Below, piece by piece: positions 50 through 26,042 of a stretch of DNA of 37,081 bases. The position numbers were made by a program, and so were the translations under genes. Source of the stretch: a virus. Every line of letters starts with the position of its first letter. The stretch's first letter is position 1. Where the stretch lies: the UHGV virus genome UHGV-0136052. The stretch is one strand, 5' to 3'. The notes below the pieces were generated by a model. The model saw only the letters and a list, made by a program, of their open reading frames with translations. It had not been told where the DNA came from and did no database searches.

Positions 50-2644
50 CTACTCTATCTCTTTTGCTTTTTTAATTATCAATTCAAGCTCTGTTAAACG
101 AGATTCAATACGTTCACACCTTCTTCGCTGGAATGCAGCCTCCAACCACAAACATTCATCTGGACGCAATCCCCAACGCTCACCAGCATGTACAACCAGT
201 TCCGTTTCACCAGTATCGTATTCTTCAAAGTATTCGTGAACGATGTCTTCTCCTTCAGGGGATTTAGCTATAAATGACACCTTGCGCTGTGCCATTACAG
301 GTTGGTACTCATCATCCCATTTATCATGACATAGCAAGCCAAATCTTGTTCCATCTATCCCCTTTGCAAGAAACGCATCTCTTACCTGCTGTGCAATTGC
401 TCCGAAATGCCAACGAGCAGTATCCGAACCTTTAGCCTTAATATCGGACAACCACTGGTAAACGATAATATTTACGTCACCCCATGCGTCAAGAATTGCA
501 TCCTGATCCACCTCCATGATTTCTGAAAGTTGCTCTACTGTCAGTGGCTTTGTTTTCAATGTCTGGTCTGAAGTATTTATTGCCCCATTAGTTGCATATA
601 CTTGCGTCCACCGTTTAGATGATGTCCCACATGATGACGTATTATCTTTATTAGCACTTATATAGCCATTAACCTCCGCTGACTGACCGATATACGAATA
701 TGAAGATGTTGATAAGGGAGATTTAAATATCCATTGAGCATTGGTAAAGTCATAAATACCGGTATCACCTTTTTCACTAACATGAAAAGTTACATTCCGT
801 AACGTATTCTTTGCATCATAACGGGCGGCTTGTGTTGTTGCCCTCGAAACAGTGAATCCTTTGTCATCAAGGTTTGCCTGCTCTATGACTTCACCACCAG
901 GCATAATTTTACCAAGGCTTAACAAACCAGAGTTAGTGACAATATCATGGGTTGAATCAATGATAATACCAGGCTGATTTCTTGATGTTGTTTTTACATG
1001 CATGACCTGTTGTGGCATTAATGTGTAAAATGTAGTTTCTCGCCCACTATCACCATCTGGTATGCCATTTGTATTCCCCATTACAAGGTCATACCCACCT
1101 GCAATCATACGGAAAAACATTGCTTCTGGTTCATATGTAAGATTGCTAACATCTGGCGTTCCGGTATCATTTGGATCTGCTATTTCATAGGCTCTTCCTG
1201 CACCTGCCTGTATTTGCTGCACCCCAAGATAAACACCATCAAGTGTGTACTGATGCAAATATTTTCTGGTTGAAGAATATGCAGATCCAGCCTGACAAAA
1301 ATAAATAGCAGTACCGTCACACGCAACTGTTTGCATATCCCTCACAAAATCGGCAATTTCAAATTCAAAAGTTGCTTCATTACGATAATCGTAATTGTAC
1401 GCCTGCGGGTTAATAAATTTGCTGGTATCAAATACTTTTACATAATAGCGAATTTGATCTGGTGTTGATGGGCTCTCACCAGGGCCAACATAACGTTTTG
1501 CTGTAGTAATCAGCCATCGACTCATAGGGTCGGTGCATAAAACATTTACCTGATTCTCGTAACCATCTTCCCATATGAGAAAAAACTCTGGTTCAATTTC
1601 ACCACCATCAGTAGGGGTGAATCTGGTGATATACTTTGCGCGATCCTCTCCTTTAGCTGTGCCAGCTAACCCCCATATCTGTAACTGGCCTCTTGTGTTA
1701 CGAAAACCAACGCGCCCTATGGTTAAACCAAGACATTGATGTCCTAATTCTCTACTACCTTTAGTCTCCCAAAGAGGAGTTAACTCTTCATTCCCAAACC
1801 AATTATAAGCAACAACTTTATTAACTTCGTCACCAGAACTAACGCTGCCACTCACATTTACCAAGCAATAAAGAACACTGTCATAATAATCAAGAACAGC
1901 ACCCTGTATGACAGTATTTTTAATTGTTGCCAGTCGCAACCCTGACTTAACATGATTAGGAGTAGAAGGTCTGAAACCTGTATACATCCCCTTTTTTATA
2001 GTTTGTATTCTTTTTTCAGTAAAATCAGCATCTGGCAGTAATCGATTCTCTGTGCGAAAATAGCCATTTATATACTTATTTCCATCAAAAACTTGATCTG
2101 TTATATATGTATTACCCCTTAGATCAACAATCCTTCCTGTGATTTGTTTTTCTAACTCTTGAAAAGATAATGTGTCATCGGTGATGCCATCACCTTTTGC
2201 TCCCCATCCGCGAGGGTCAGCGTCATCACGCCACCGAGACATCTGCAATTCATGATATTTTTTAGCACCTTCCGGGTCTTCTAATTGTTGTCTTAATTGG
2301 TCAGGATCGTACTTAAGCACATTCGGAAAATAGAACTGCTGCGTACCATATGCATCGTAAACAGCCATAGAATGGCCTTGCACGGTAACGAATTTGGAAA
2401 TCTGTCCGTTGTATACCGGGTATCCAGCAGCATTGATAACGATTGGCTGTGGCACCTGAACATAAGTACCATCTTCTCGTTCCAGATATACTGGAATCTG
2501 GTTTTCTGGATTTACCGGATCTGTGTCAATCTTACCGATATAAATTTTTCCATTTGCTACGGTTTTAAAAGAACTAGCCATTGTGAAGAGTTGCGATGGC
2601 ATACCTATCACAACATTTGGGGTTATATCAGGCATATTAGTCAT
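50..2644 (-). CDS. Tailspike: P22 gp9-like head-binding N-terminus, unassigned central receptor domain, C-terminal intramolecular-chaperone-like domain
   Basis: N-terminus [21 protein letters not shown]...[15 protein letters not shown]...VLKYDPDQ matches recalled P22/Sf6 tailspike; start taken at internal Met (ORF extension upstream judged artifact); S-D-x-x-x-K motif near C-terminal 172 aa. Confidence 0.85.
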
Positions 2645-3066: not shown

Positions 3067-3318
3067 ATGGGAAGAGATGACCCGCAATTTAATCTGCGGA
3101 TATCTTACGAATTAAAGGAAAAACTAAAACAGCGAGCCAAATCCAATGGCCGCTCTCTTAATTCAGAATTAGTTCAGATAGTGACTGATGCTGTATCAAA
3201 GCCATCCAAAATTTCAGGCTATTGAGACGATGCGGAACGCATCGCTGATGAGCAGTCCGACCTTGTTAAGAAGATGGTGTTTGATACGCTGAAGGATTTG
3301 TACAAAAAACCCACCTGA
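3067..3318 (+). pseudogene. mnt: Mnt-like ribbon-helix-helix repressor interrupted by in-frame TGA at 3223-3225 (codon 53)
   Basis: Hand translation MGRDDPQFNLRISYELKEKLKQRAKSNGRSLNSELVQIVTDAVSKPSKISGY*DDAERIADEQSDLVKKMVFDTLKDLYKKPT matches recalled P22 Mnt (83 aa) across the stop. Confidence 0.7.
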
Positions 3319-10956: not shown

Positions 10957-11457
10957 TTATTCGCTCCCGTTATCGCAAGGTTCCTTTCGGTGGAAGTAAT
11001 TCCAACCATTCCACTTCGCCAACTGGTTACCGCTACCAACAGGCATACGGTTTGGATAACCGGACTTACATTTAGCGGCTTTTGCTCTGTCCATTGCAGA
11101 CAGTTTGACGAGTCGCTCTTTCCCGTATCTGGCAGTGGTTATAAGTTTTGCTGACGCTTCCAGCGCATAATCCGGAGCAATGCGGCAGGCAAGGTTGAAA
11201 ATGACAGCATTGATAGCGTTATTTGATAAACCGTGCTCATCTCCCGGATTTGGAGCGACATCTGCATCAGCGAAAATGTAGCCAACATTGATACCTGGTG
11301 ACGCATCACCGCCAAGCCATTCCGCCATCATCATTTCAAGGTCGTTGACACCATCTTCCATGGACTGAGGTTCGACATCGGTTAACGTGGCATTTGATGC
11401 CACACCGAGCTTACGTAATGCCGCAAGAACTAAATCACCCTTCGTTGTCAGGTTCAT
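10957..11457 (-). CDS. Tail accessory protein, P22 gp4-like
   Basis: From internal Met: [32 protein letters not shown]... matches recalled gp4; upstream SQSQSQ extension is an ORF artifact. Confidence 0.8.
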
Positions 11458-11677
11458 CTGCTGCCGCCTTAGGTTTTCGACCAGGCTTTTTACGCTGTTT
11501 TTCTTCTGGCTCTGGCTCTGGCTCTGGCTCTGCAACATCCTTCAGAAGGTCATCCGGATGTGCAAACCAACCAGCATCCAGATATTCCTGAAGCTCTTCG
11601 GCTTTCACGATTTCAAAGTCGTAGCCAACGCCTTTCCACTTCTTCATGTCGCCATGACGAAAGATCATGTGTGTCAT
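11435..11677 (-). CDS. Small ORF between coat and gp4 with EPEPEPEP low-complexity segment
   Basis: Position equivalent to a small ORF after the P22 coat gene; start uncertain. Confidence 0.35.
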
Positions 11678-13941: not shown

Positions 13942-16107
13942 TTATTGAGGTGTCTCGGCTACTCCGCCGGAGGGGATTTGAACTTGACGCATAAGATTAG
14001 CGAAATCCATGCGTTGTGAATGAGTCTGGTCTGCATCTTTAAGAAGCAGCTCAGCGTTAGCACGAGCATCTTTGCTGCGCTGTTGCTGGAATTGACCTAC
14101 GAGCTTGAGGTACTCACGCAGTTCTGCCTGCTTGTCGAGGTCCATATTGTTGAAGATTTCTGCAATCTTCGCGGCGTTGAGTTGGTTTTGGGCTTCAACC
14201 TTGGCGGCTTCAACCTGAATCTGCGCCTGTTGGTTCTCTGCCTTGAGCAATTCAGCCTGACCTTGCAGAAGGATACCCTGCGCCTGAATTTGCTCTGCTG
14301 ATGGCTGCTGCGGCTGTTGTTGTGCCTGCTGTACCATCTCCATCTCTTCAGGTGTTTCTGGTTTCTTCAGCCCCATCATCACCAGTTGCTTGTTCGCGTA
14401 CTCTCGCATCATCTCGACGCCTTTACCGTCAAGCAGCGTGAAGTATTGCAGCATCAGCATCTGGAACTCTGGAGTACCTTGCGGAACCTTGGTTAGTAAC
14501 TCCTGAATCTCTGCGCGGTTCTGTTCCTTCATGCTCTGGAAGGATGGCCCAACGTCCGTATAGCACTCATAGCGACCACGAATGTCGTTGAGTGTGACCA
14601 CATTGCCGGACTGGTAATCGACAACTTGCGCATAGAGTTGAACGTCTTTCTCGCTTCCATCTTCAAGTGTCAGCGTTACATGACGAGGAACGTCATAAAT
14701 ATCGTTGACCATTGAGGCATAAATCTCGCCATCACGTCGCATTGCGGTAGCCAGGTTATCCTGGAACACGTATGTCTCAAGGTCTGCCCGCATGTTCAGT
14801 TGATTGACGGTATCGAAAGCGACCTGACCATTTGCCGCCTGCGCATCCACACCAAGACTAGCCACCTCTTTCACTGCGTTGGTGGCAGCCTCAAGCATGT
14901 AAGCGTTGGCTTGCGGCACTTCAGGGTTTTCCATGTAGGAGATTGGACCAATCGGCAGGTCGTTACCGTTTTCATCGGTCTTGTTCTGCAGATAGTACGG
15001 ATAGTCATCATTTCCACCGTACATGTATTCGTAGCCTTCGATTTGCTCAGGGAAGAAGGTCGGTTTCTTCTTCGGTGAACGAGCAACAATATCGGCGTTG
15101 AATGACATGATCATGTTACGAAGGCGCTGACCGTCTTTCGTCAGCCTTACCACTCCTTCGTAGCACTCCTTGTCACCAGCGAATGACCATTCGCCATACA
15201 CTGGAACGATTGGAATATGCTCTCCGGCTATCTTCTCGCGGTCTTTCAGTATCTGCGTGCAGGTGATGATCGACTTATACACACGCCGACGCTTCACCTT
15301 GCGCTCTGCTACCTTAATGAATCCACGATTAGCCAGGTCGTCGATGACGTCTTTGATATCCTGCTGGTAATAGCTGACCGGCTCACCTGTCAGCGGGTCG
15401 CGGTAGATGAAGACCTTCTCTTTCTTCTCTTCGACCTCGTAATACTCAGCGACGTAGACGACATCATTCGATACCCAAGGGAACAGCCATGTATCGTTCG
15501 GATTCTGGAAAGATGGCAAGGTATCCGGATCAATACCGTAATCCTCTGCGAACTCTTTCCAGCCATTGCGTGACAAAGCGTTAATCACCGTGCAGTGCTT
15601 AGCGTCGCTCTTATCCATCTGCTTGCTATTGGCGTCCCATATGACGTGTGAGCAGGCTTCATGGATTGGAAGGCGTCGGATTACCTGATTGTTGCTTGTT
15701 GGATCGTTGTCTTCGTACTGCGTGACCAGACGCCATGCACCAACGCCGGACTCTATCTGCTCACGAACGCCAACGTTAACGGCAATCTTTGCCGTGTTAT
15801 GGCGCATATCAGTACGATACATCCCCATCAACACATCGGCAGCATCAGGATTAGCGCCGTCTTTGGGTCGGAAGAGAACGTCGATAGGGTTCCGGCGCAT
15901 CTCTGCGACCAGTTTCCTGACCACCGGGCGAACAACATCGAATTGTCCGCGATATTGCAGAGTCGTGTAGTTTGATAGCCAGTCATCCCATTGCGACACT
16001 CGGCTAAAATACAGGTCATTTGTCGCCTCGGTTCTGGCTTCATCGCTCGCCATCCAGTCTGCGTCAAACTTACACAGAATGGAATTGAGTCTGTTTTCGT
16101 CGGCCAT
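13942..16107 (-). CDS. Portal protein, P22 gp1-like
   Basis: 721 aa; N-terminus [18 protein letters not shown]...[35 protein letters not shown] matches recalled P22 portal. Confidence 0.92.
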
Positions 16108-17607
16108 TTAAGTTCTCCGTGCGATGGGCCTGATTGGGGCTGGTATCTTTTTCTCTTTTGGTTTTTTGATGTCGCGCATCATTTTTGCGAAGCGGCGCAT
16201 CATGTATGCATAGCGAACGGCGGATAGCACGTCGTCGTTAAGCTTGACGATTTTCCCGTTTTCATCACGGTGATAGAGGCGGAACTCCTCAAAGAATGGC
16301 TCACAGGTGTTGAATACTTTGAAGCGACCGTCGAGCATCATGTCTCGCAATTCAGTGATGCCAGGCTCAACAGCATTACCGCCATCAGGCCATGTCGCAT
16401 GCTCCTGCAACATCATAAAACCAGCGTCCGCGTACTGCCCTTTAAGCTGCTCACCGCCGCCCTTCTCATGCTGGTTTCCGTCATGAGGCCATGCGGTTGG
16501 CACTTTATGCGCCCATGATTTAACAGCTCACCACGCCTGAACGGCTGTCTTTTCTTTCGCCTTCCACACGCGTGAAACGTAGATTGTGTCTGCGTCCTTA
16601 TCCCACCAAAGCTGAACCTGCGCCTGAGGGTGATCCCATCCGAAATCCATCCCACCAATTACGTAGAAGTGATCAGGACACTCGAACGGCTGACACTTAA
16701 TCGTCTCTTCCGGTATCTGGAAGATTCGACCGCTACCCATCGTAGGAATACCGCGAGCACGCGCCTCTCTCTCATGCTCTGGATAGGATGCGATGATTTG
16801 CTCTTTCTGCTCGTCGGTATAGTGCTCAGCGTCATAGATGGTCATGTTGACCACTTTCTGCGACTTGCTGGGGTTCTTCAGGAACTTGGTAACAACGTCA
16901 GACATCCCCATCAGCGGGGTAAACGTCAGAATTGAGAATTGCCCGTATTTGTTGGTACGGGTAAGCCCTTCGCCATAAATGCTGTATGGTGGTTCTTCGT
17001 CAAACCACACGCCGTGGATTGTGTCACCCTGCCAGCGAGCACGGCCTTGCGAGTATGGTTTGAAGTAGCAGATTGAAATGCCATCTTCAACGCCATCAGC
17101 CGTGTGATGCTTAACCAGAAGATGATCAACAAGGTTCGGAAAGAAAGGAGACTTCTTCCAGCTAATGATGTCTTCTTTCGGTATGGAACCGTAGCCAGGT
17201 TCACCATTCTCTTCGATACGACCGCACAGGATGCGTTGAGTCGTTTTGGTTACAGTCTCGTTTGTCTCTCCACCAATCCAGAAGACAACAGGCTCATAGA
17301 AACGCTTACCTTTCCACTCACCGCCATATTTACCATCAGCAGGATAGCCTTTTGTGCCCGGATAACGCCCGGTAAGGTGAAACGCGACTTCAGCAGCACC
17401 AGTAAATGACTTACCAAGCTGGTTACCAGCCATAAAACATCGCTCTGGATAGTCATGCCCGGCGTCGATGAACTCACGCTGTTTGCTGTATGGCGTAAAT
17501 TCATATAGCAGGTGTGTGTTACGGTAGTTCTCTTCTTCTTCGAGTAGCTCGAGCAATTCGATTTGCTCTTCGTCGCTCAGGTTATCAAGAATCGCGTCCA
17601 GTTCCAC
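16108..17607 (-). pseudogene. Terminase large subunit, P22 gp2-like, interrupted by in-frame TGA at 16528-16530 (codon 360 of 499)
   Basis: Two ORFs (359 aa and 131 aa) share one frame and are separated only by a TGA; total 499 codons equals recalled P22 gp2 length. Confidence 0.75.
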
Positions 17608-18073
17608 GGTTGAATAGCTCCTTGATACGAGAGCGTCGCTTATCGCGATCTCCCTTATCAGGTGTCACGTCTTCAACTTGCGACTGCTCTTTGAGGCCCA
17701 AATCACGGGCGATGATGTTAGCGTTGAGAAGGTCAGCAGCAGCGCCAGAGAATTTCTGGTCGTAGATGACCTGTTCTGCTCGCGTAACGACTTCAGATAA
17801 ATCTTCTCGCAGGCGATATGTGCGCCATGTTTCAAGCGTCACATCAATGAACAGAGTGAGTCCGGTAATGGTCATCGCTCGCATCTTGGCGATAGGCTCT
17901 TGTATCACTTCACCCTGATACGAGAACGCCTTCATCTCCCATAGCGGGTTAGCTTCCACCCACTCGAAGTATTCACAACAAGCAGCCCACAGCGCCTCAG
18001 GCGATTCGAATTTAGGGTTTCGCCCATGACTACTGCGGGCCTCCCAAAATCGGTTGCCCTTTGGTGCTGCCAT
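17585..18073 (-). CDS. Terminase small subunit, P22 gp3-like
   Basis: [46 protein letters not shown]... matches recalled P22 gp3, 162 aa from second Met. Confidence 0.9.
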
Positions 18074-18096
18074 ATTCATCTCACTTAGTTGTTATT

Positions 18097-18495
18097 TCAG
18101 GCTGATGACTCTTTCGCGCTTTCAATCAGTGACTGCTTCAGCAAGTAACCTTCGAGCATCCAGATTTTGCTTACAGCATTCTGCCGGGCAATCTTCCGAC
18201 CAATTTCTGCATCAAAGTTTTCCGGGCTTGCACAGGCACTCTCTCCGGTGACGGTGAAGCCATTCTTCAGCACCAGTACGCAGAAAGTGAGCAACTTCAA
18301 TGGTGATAAATCACGATCGCCTTCTTCTGGTTTTTCCCTGCCACAATATTCGTTGCTGGAAATGGCACCATTACGTCCATCATAAGCAGTAAAGTAATGC
18401 TCGCTTTTAATCACGTCTTCGATGTGCTGAGGAGTGATTCGCGGGGCTGTTTTGCCTTTCTCAACGATTTCTTTTTCGATTTGCTGGTCGCTCAT
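18097..18495 (-). CDS. Hypothetical phage protein upstream of terminase (possibly N4 gp49 / Sf6 gene 66 family)
   Basis: 132 aa ORF immediately before small terminase; family assignment from memory only. Confidence 0.4.
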   Translation of the reverse strand: MSDQQIEKEIVEKGKTAPRITPQHIEDVIKSEHYFTAYDGRNGAISSNEYCGREKPEEGDRDLSPLKLLTFCVLVLKNGFTVTGESACASPENFDAEIGRKIARQNAVSKIWMLEGYLLKQSLIESAKESSA

Positions 18496-20966: not shown

Positions 20967-21042
20967 TGGTGCTGATTAACGGACTTGAACCGCCACCCAT
21001 TCGCTTACAAGGCGACTGCTCTACCATTGGAGCTAAACCAGC
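20967..21042 (-). tRNA. tRNA-like gene, anticodon UGU (Thr) with encoded CCA; some stems contain G-U pairs or mismatches
   Basis: Hand-folded cloverleaf: D-arm GCTC/GAGC, anticodon loop CTTGTAA, T-loop GGTTCAAGTCC. Confidence 0.5.
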
Positions 21043-21047
21043 ATGTT

Positions 21048-21122
21048 TGGCGGGACAGCGTGGACTCGAACCACGATAAGAAGGTTAACAGCCTTCCGTA
21101 ATGACCTTTATACGACTGACCC
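21048..21122 (-). tRNA. tRNA-like gene, anticodon GUU (Asn) with encoded CCA; acceptor and D stems each contain a mismatch
   Basis: Hand-folded cloverleaf: anticodon arm GAAGG-CTGTTAA-CCTTC, T-arm CGTGG-TTCGAGT-CCACG. Confidence 0.55.
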
Positions 21123-24155: not shown

Positions 24156-24592
24156 GCAGCCTTGTCTCCCCATCTTGCTTTCCACTCCAGAGCCAGTCGC
24201 GCTTCGTCTGACCACTTAACGCCACGTTCTGTACCGAATGCCTGTATAAGCTCTAATAGCTCCGCAAATTCGCCTACCCGCATCCTACTGGTTGACTGGC
24301 CTATTACCACAAAGCCAGTCCCGGCAAGGTTAGGAACAACGTCCTGCTGCTTTAAGGCTGCGGTAAACACACACTTCCAGCTTTCTGCATCCAGCCAGCG
24401 ACCATGCCATTCAACCTGACGAGAGACGTCACCAAGGCAAGCCCAAAGCTTTCGATTCTGGTCTAAGCTGCGGTTGCGTTCCTGAATGGTTACTACGATT
24501 GGTTTGGTTGGGTCTGGAAGGATTTGCTGTACTGCGTGAATAGCGTTTTGCTGATGTGCTGGAGATCGAATTTCAAAGGTTAGCTTTTTCAT
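24152..24592 (-). CDS. ninB: NinB recombination protein
   Basis: MKKLTFEIRSPAHQQNAIHAVQQILPDPTKPIVVTIQERNRSLDQNRKLWACLGDVSRQVEWHGRWLD... matches recalled lambda NinB, 146 aa. Confidence 0.9.
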   Translation of the reverse strand: MKKLTFEIRSPAHQQNAIHAVQQILPDPTKPIVVTIQERNRSLDQNRKLWACLGDVSRQVEWHGRWLDAESWKCVFTAALKQQDVVPNLAGTGFVVIGQSTSRMRVGEFAELLELIQAFGTERGVKWSDEARLALEWKARWGDKAA

Positions 24593-24665
24593 GACTTCCC
24601 TCTCCCCCAAATAAAAAGGCCTGCGATTACCAGCAGGCCTGTTATTAGCTCAGTGATGTAGATGG

Positions 24666-26042
24666 TCATACGTCAGCCCCTTGTGCATATCGTCTGCCAC
24701 GCGCAGCAGGTGCATTTGATGCTGTACAAATCTGTCTGGCTTCATCCTGGTCACATGCAACAAAGTGTCCGTTACAGAACCGCTGGTAAACCGTACCAAG
24801 TGAGCCAAAACGGTTTTTCGTCACGATGATTTCAGCAAATGGCGCGGCGCTACTGTTCTCGTCATATACCGCTTCCCGATAGAGCATGATGATTGAGTCT
24901 GCGTCCTGCTCAATGCTTCCTGAATCACGCAAATCTGCGTTTGTCGGGCGTTTGTTTGGTCGCTTCTCAACATCGCGTGAAAGCTGACTTAGGGAGATAA
25001 CAGGCGTTTTCAGGTCTTTCGCCATCGCCTTAAGGCTTCCGGAGATGTGAGCAATTGCGAGGTCGTTGCGGTCTGCTTTCGGCTTCTCAATCAGGCCAAG
25101 ATAATCCGCCATGATGAGTGACAGGTTTGGATTTTCCTGTTTGTGCCGTTCTGCGATTGAGCGAATTTCTTCGACAGATAACCGCGAGGCATCGACTACC
25201 CATACATCCAAATCTGCAAGCTGACTCATGCCGTTAGCAACGCGCGCCCAGCCTTCGTCATCCATCGATGCAGGATTTCGCAGCACGCTAACCGACATCC
25301 TCCCGGCGTTGGCAATGCTTCGCTCTGCAATCTGCAATGCGCTCATTTCCATCGAGAAAATCAATACTCCGCGCCGGACGTCAGAACCAGGAATAACGCG
25401 GCTTGCAACGCCTTCGGCAATCTTCAGCGCCAGTTCGGTTTTCCCCATACCAGGACGAGCGGCGATAATCACCAGGTCTTCCGCGTTCATCCCTCCGGTG
25501 ATGGCGTCAAGTTCTTCGATTCCGGTCTTCAGGGTATCTGACTCTTCTCCGTTCCTCAGACGCCTGTCAAGCGTGTCAGTGTAGTCAGTGATGATTTCCC
25601 CTAACCGTACAGGTTTAACCTCGTCACGGGGCTTTCTGATGGCTGAGAGCCGTTTTACAAGTTCATCCATCGCCTGACTCGATGCGTCGATGGTTCCGCT
25701 TTGGATTGGTTCACGCATTTCATCCATGATTTCCAGCACCAGACGGCGGTGATAGTTATCCGCGACCATTCCGGCATATCCCTTCAGGTTTGCGGCACTC
25801 GGGCAGTTTTTGCTGGTCATCAGGATTGACATGAAATGCTCCTCTCCGCATTCCTCAGCAACCATCAGCGCGTCGATTAGGTTTCTGTTTCGCGCCTGCT
25901 TGCGGATAACCTCGAAGGCTTTTCTGTAGAGCGGAATTGAAAACGCTTCCGGCTCCAGCGTTGCCAGAACGTCACTGGCGGTTGGAGTTAATCCACCAAT
26001 CAGCAGGCCACCGATAACGCTCGCTTCGATATCCTGTCTCAT
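24666..26042 (-). CDS. Replicative DNA helicase, DnaB family (P22 gene 12-type)
   Basis: 458 aa; Walker A ARPGMGKT; DnaB-like C-terminal domain; follows O-like gene. Confidence 0.85.

Follow-up and report, generated by a model that had tools for sequence, protein, structure and literature searches.

Does a prophage whose large terminase (TerL) gene is crossed by a single in-frame TGA still possess a working packaging enzyme, and is that TGA a genuine mutation, an error in the sequence or a codon that translation is able to pass? This question is raised by the window analysed here, by which we mean the whole stretch of 37,081 nucleotides presented as UHGV virus genome UHGV-0136052. A prophage of E. 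coli A3 (NZ_CP028771.1, 2516509-2553581) is collinear with the window from tailspike to integrase and flank; the two align over 37 kb in a single alignment at 99.77% identity (65 mismatches, 8 gaps) and lie at the same chromosomal site. The window is accordingly a P22-like prophage integrated in E. coli. Our data leave us highly confident that the TGA is a genuine, recent and vertically inherited nonsense mutation in the TerL gene of a P22-like (Lederbergvirus) prophage that is intact in other respects.

The interrupted terminase frame

The list of open reading frames places two minus-strand ORFs, 16528-17607 (359 aa) and 16108-16503 (131 aa), in one frame, and the earlier note had read them as a single terminase gene parted by a lone TGA. 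Translation of 16108-17607 agrees with this reading, as codon 360, a TGA, is the sole internal stop among 499 codons. The coordinates given for the two ORFs are right as they stand, with the refinement that the sense codons of the N-terminal fragment occupy 16531-17607 rather than 16528-17607, because the end reported by the ORF tool counts the stop, and that the in-frame remnant extends over 16108-16527, the GTG at 16503 being merely a mechanical ORF start. The features of the locus are the following.

16108..17607, minus strand: TerL (P22 gp2-type) pseudogene, 499 codons plus the natural TAA, GTG start, one interruption (from translation, Pfam and PDB 4DKW)
16528..16530, minus strand: premature TGA at codon 360, the mutated base being 16530 (from comparison with intact alleles)
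16531..17607, minus strand: N-terminal translated fragment of 359 aa, the same as EQN85273.1 and STN00712.1 (from the ORF list, Pfam and motif positions)
16108..16527, minus strand: in-frame untranslated remnant, codons 361-499 plus stop (100% identity to the intact allele)
17585..18073, minus strand: TerS (gp3-type), intact (Pfam GP3_package; protein identical to WP_000729922.1)
13942..16107, minus strand: portal (gp1-type), intact, beginning directly after the TerL stop and with its own GGAG Shine-Dalgarno sequence

On the coding strand the stop lies in the context CAGGCGTGG-TGA-GCTGTT, and at the protein level it falls between AVQAW and AVKSW, so that Trp359 is the last residue translated. 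The gene begins with GTG and overlaps the TerS gene by 23 nt, and its synteny is that of the gp2-type family, with an overlapping TerS upstream and the portal directly downstream.

That the gene is an orthologue of P22 gp2, as had been suggested from the letters alone, follows from several matches of the read-through translation. In Pfam, residues 57-302 belong to Terminase_6N (E 1.4e-47) and residues 318-470 to the RNase H-like nuclease domain Terminase_6C (E 3.3e-28), while residues 289-497 match residues 1-209 of the chain of PDB 4DKW, the P22 gp2 nuclease domain (E 8e-127). A further match is to the N-terminal gp2 peptide of 6VI1. The Walker A motif GNQLGKS is found at 61-67, Walker B (VWFDE) at 200-204, and Asp321 is present. 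In P22 gp2 an ATPase fold (38-284) is followed by a flexible linker, a nuclease domain (313-482) with the catalytic residue Asp321, and a basic tail (483-499) (PMC11728703). The length given for gp2 in the earlier note, 499 codons, proved accurate, since it agrees with annotated homologues of 499 aa and with the numbering of 4DKW. The window thus has the length, the domain order and the gene order TerS-TerL-portal in common with P22, and differs in having a TGA in place of Gly360 and in belonging to an E. coli sublineage resembling IME10 and SPN9CC rather than to P22 itself. At the DNA level its TerL gene shares about 88% identity with P22 gene 2 and 97-98% with the terminase genes of Lederbergvirus phages from E. 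coli and Salmonella, among them IME10, APC_JM3.2 and SPN9CC, every one annotated as intact.

Origin of the stop codon

The earlier note proposed to identify the ancestral codon by comparison with homologues, and this comparison gives GGA, encoding Gly360. Over 1499 of its 1500 nt the gene is identical to that of E. coli A3 (WP_001404864.1), and the only difference is base 16530, where the plus strand has A in the window and C in A3 and the coding strand accordingly T and G; codon 360 has thus changed from GGA to TGA by one G>T transversion on the coding strand. Both halves of the interrupted frame therefore belong to one gene, and because each matches the single intact A3 gene with the exception of one base, their sharing of a frame is not a matter of chance. 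Locus L015, whose gene neighbourhood on an ENA metagenome scaffold matches that of the window, likewise differs from the window at base 16530 only, and the intact allele of A3, AHB29 and L015 has GGA where the window has TGA. Fourteen comparators were used in all, namely A3, H22, AHB29 and IME10, each with GGA, and ten loci retrieved via the TerS protein, L015 among them. Codon 360 is GGA in 10 of the 14, GGG in one, GGT in two and AGT (Ser) in one; the ten TerS-retrieved loci account for six of the GGA codons and for all of the others. As a single base is all that separates the gene from intact alleles over 1500 nt, we regard the mutation as recent.

A difference of just one base is also what a sequencing or assembly error would leave behind, the true genome then having GGA. 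G>T is a known artefact of oxidative damage, and the related assemblies of E. coli A3 and A26, the two closest complete genomes, hold obvious indel errors in the same prophage. What speaks against an error is the public occurrence of the allele. In an exact-protein index the identical 359-aa truncated product is found on 34 contigs (45 index blocks) drawn from NCBI, ENA and Logan, which come from at least three projects and reach 4.79 Mb in length; the intact protein, differing only by Gly360, is found on 659 contigs. In E. coli HVH 24 the truncated protein is annotated as EQN85273.1 and a 102-aa C-terminal fragment carries the adjacent accession EQN85272.1, so the gene was called there in two adjacent pieces, and STN00712.1 is a second NCBI record of the truncated protein. 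Furthermore, a 561-kb ENA scaffold from a metagenome (L007, SAMN04436698) is 100% identical to the window across the 7080 bp retrieved, the TGA included. Since an error would not recur identically in the assemblies of separate projects, the allele is real and inherited, and we consider an error very improbable. The earlier note had offered a recent inactivating mutation or a sequencing error; the former stands and the latter falls, given the 34 contigs from different projects.

The TGA allele is nevertheless rare, and it was seen through the exact-protein index only and not in pattern scans. Neither JGI metagenome contigs nor the species-representative genomes of GTDB contained an exact match to a 37-mer spanning the TGA. 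A 71-bp segment of this region occurs in 193 complete RefSeq E. coli genomes, in none of them with the TGA, and the best identity was 98.6%.

Consequences for packaging and possible escapes from the defect

The 359-aa product retains the region of the TerS-binding N-terminal hairpin, the complete ATPase domain and the linker, together with the first 42 of the 153 Terminase_6C residues, including the catalytic Asp321. It is without the other 111 residues of the nuclease domain and without the basic C-terminal tail (483-499). The claim that truncation removes the nuclease region thus holds for those 111 residues and not for the region as a whole. In terminase nucleases the active-site carboxylates are contributed by several strands, a late helix and four loops across the RNase H fold (PMC5389553), and a remnant of 42 residues would not be able to fold the nuclease domain. 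Without a folded nuclease the fragment should make neither pac-proximal nor headful cuts, and it would probably have no packaging-motor activity either. The ATPase motifs, the encoded nuclease domain and the synteny of the gp2-type family are all present at the locus, and what it lacks is an uninterrupted two-domain frame; because of the TGA, with what little of the nuclease it leaves, we class the locus as a pseudogene of this family rather than as a functional member.

The large terminase is described as essential to packaging (PMC9611059). In the classical genetics of the Botstein and King era, the phenotype expected of P22 gene 2 amber mutants is an accumulation of procapsids and uncut, unpackaged concatemers and no infectious phage. 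Taken together, the domain architecture and this classical phenotype make it most likely that the prophage would be packaging-defective. Upon induction it would replicate, assemble procapsids and lyse its host, yet release no, or almost no, DNA-filled virions. The parallel with the classical ambers lies in a premature stop in gene 2; they differ in that the ambers were laboratory TAG mutants grown in suppressor hosts, whereas the window has an opal mutation that arose naturally and became fixed in a lineage of lysogens. An inherited inactivating mutation in a virion-essential gene is the mark of a defective prophage, and the TerL nonsense codon, with its allele on 34 contigs, is such a mutation. 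The lesion would represent the first step of prophage decay, and the defect would stand unless an intact terminase comes in trans.

Three ways around this defect have to be weighed. In the first of these the two ORFs would be meant as they are, either through programmed recoding (selenocysteine insertion or regulated readthrough) or as a functional two-piece terminase whose second part is made by downstream reinitiation. The shared frame and a GTG 8 codons past the stop would suit such a design, but the UGA is not conserved, with Gly or Ser in all 14 comparators, and because the other 1499 nt are those of the intact allele, no recoding signal can have co-evolved with it. Nor does the window contain what recoding would call for. 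Rfam finds no SECIS element there, its only matches being two tRNAs, Thr(UGU) and Asn(GUU), which are the only tRNAs in the window, so that it holds no suppressor tRNA, and the 91-nt stretch that surrounds and follows the stop has no folding advantage over shuffled sequences (z = -1.65), which leaves no significant hairpin. Pairing with the anti-Shine-Dalgarno sequence is weak at the candidate restart codons, GTG 16503 (-2.4 kcal/mol) and ATG 16416 (-3.2 kcal/mol), compared to the true starts of TerL (-7.7 kcal/mol) and portal (-6.6 kcal/mol), and the break falls inside the RNase H fold rather than in the interdomain linker (about 285-312). We therefore judge recoding, or a terminase in two pieces, to be next to impossible. 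Unprogrammed readthrough of the UGA by tRNA-Trp is the related alternative, in which a leaky opal mutant would make enough full-length G360W terminase for virions at a low level. Of the stop codons in E. coli, UGA is read through most readily, and small amounts of terminase are enough, both of which favour this possibility; UGA followed by G is not the leakiest context, which is UGA-C, and that counts against it. Trp would be a radical replacement at position 360, where 14 of 14 homologues compared have Gly or Ser, a pentameric motor would hold mostly truncated subunits, and the same fold score indicates that a readthrough-promoting structure is absent. Spontaneous readthrough may thus yield, at most, traces of full-length G360W, probably an impaired protein, and we find it very unlikely that these would suffice for low-level virion production.

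The remaining possibility accepts the mutation as real and supposes that it is masked, in that the TerL of a second resident prophage packages the DNA in trans and the stop persists in a polylysogen under relaxed selection. Both A3 and A26 do contain a second Lederbergvirus prophage (in A3 at NZ_CP028771.1 1608311-1616381, locus L010, and in A26 likewise at a second place in the genome), and its TerS protein is identical to that of the window, so the pac specificity is probably the same. Its TerL is intact and differs from the ancestral allele of the window by 34 nt and by one residue (G135D). What weakens this explanation is that an exact-protein look-up of TerS for a second prophage in the window's own sample matched other genomes only, and that truncated subunits might poison mixed terminase assemblies. 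We regard masking in trans as possible, if rather unlikely. An extension of the same idea, in which the terminase-null prophage is a helper-dependent, satellite-like partner of a co-resident prophage with identical TerS and intact TerL and not a case of simple decay, seems to us doubtful. Less likely is a role of the ATPase-only fragment as a dominant-negative inhibitor of packaging by superinfecting relatives.

With the nonsense mutation as the preferred explanation, the locus is an ordinary recent pseudogene in a well-characterised family; it involves no new mechanism, the truncated protein is already in GenBank, and the finding bears on no open question. Its use lies in annotation. The prophage should be described as carrying a TerL pseudogene, and until it has been tested it is not to be listed among intact, inducible phages or sources of generalised transduction. 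Split calls in the databases, EQN85273 and EQN85272 among others, are to be read as the two halves of one broken gene. The prophage also offers a clean and datable first hit in prophage decay, where one substitution has occurred and all else is intact.

Other lesions in the gene and in the rest of the prophage

The same gene has been inactivated independently in E. coli TA054, where the TerL product (OSL75415.1) has 397 aa owing to a frameshift near codon 353 and the C-terminal piece is a separate ORF (OSL75414.1). This lesion lies a few codons upstream of the TGA of the window and differs from it in being a frameshift, on a different allele background, rather than a nonsense substitution. As the two arose independently, decay of TerL recurs in P22-like prophages. 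A further irregularity is found in the A26 assembly, which is without window 16229-16534, a gap of 306 bp that ends 4 bases from the TGA codon. In the same assembly the portal, TerL and TerS genes (locus L006, about 15940-18330, corresponding to window 15456-18170) contain many small indels and are all annotated as frameshifted. Because the gap falls in a stretch so full of small indels, we consider it probable that it reflects a local assembly problem, and not biology, in a genome where two prophages are nearly identical.

Outside TerL, mapping of the A3 annotation onto window 50-20724 showed that 22 of 22 other tail, head-assembly and lysis genes are open, in keeping with the earlier impression that the remaining morphogenetic genes are intact. 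These include the tailspike, the ejection proteins, gp10, gp4, coat, scaffold, portal, TerS and the lysis genes. The coat gene of A3 has a frameshift that is missing from both the window and A26, and for this reason it is probably an error of the A3 assembly. Among the genes mapped in this region only TerL and an Arc-family gene, mnt, have internal stops, and the latter stop, as had been noted, is also a TGA.

3067-3318, plus strand: mnt (Arc-family), with a stop at 3223-3225 where CGA (Arg53) has become TGA by C>T

The intact Mnt homologue of phage vB_EcoP-720R6 has CGA (Arg) at the position of the TGA in the window. The remaining product of 52 aa would retain the N-terminal part, which we take to be the ribbon-helix-helix region as in P22 Mnt, and lose the C-terminal part. 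The mnt stop is common to the A3 and A26 prophages, where RefSeq records it as an internal stop, and since the terminase stop is not shared with them, the mnt stop is the older of the two. A common cause for the two TGA codons was considered and rejected, as the change in TerL is a lineage-specific G>T and that in mnt is a C>T shared with A3 and A26. In addition, residue 12 of mnt is changed relative to A3 (L12I, 3100).

Several smaller observations emerged from the comparison with A3. Of the 85 columns in which the two prophages differ, 38 cluster in 1.26 kb at 24226-25482, a region that comprises ninB and the replicative helicase, which suggests a recombination patch in an otherwise near-identical prophage. 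A small ORF (11435-11677) between gp4 and coat is 12 bp longer than in A3 owing to an in-frame insertion at 11505-11516 (TCTGGCTCTGGC, a tandem hexamer repeat). In the tailspike gene (50-2635, minus strand) a compensating pair of 1-bp indels and a mismatch occur within 5 bases at 928-932; these may be an error in one of the two assemblies, and the ORF is open in the window. Finally, the Thr(UGU) and Asn(GUU) tRNAs lie at 20967-21122 on the minus strand, between the Q antiterminator and holin genes.
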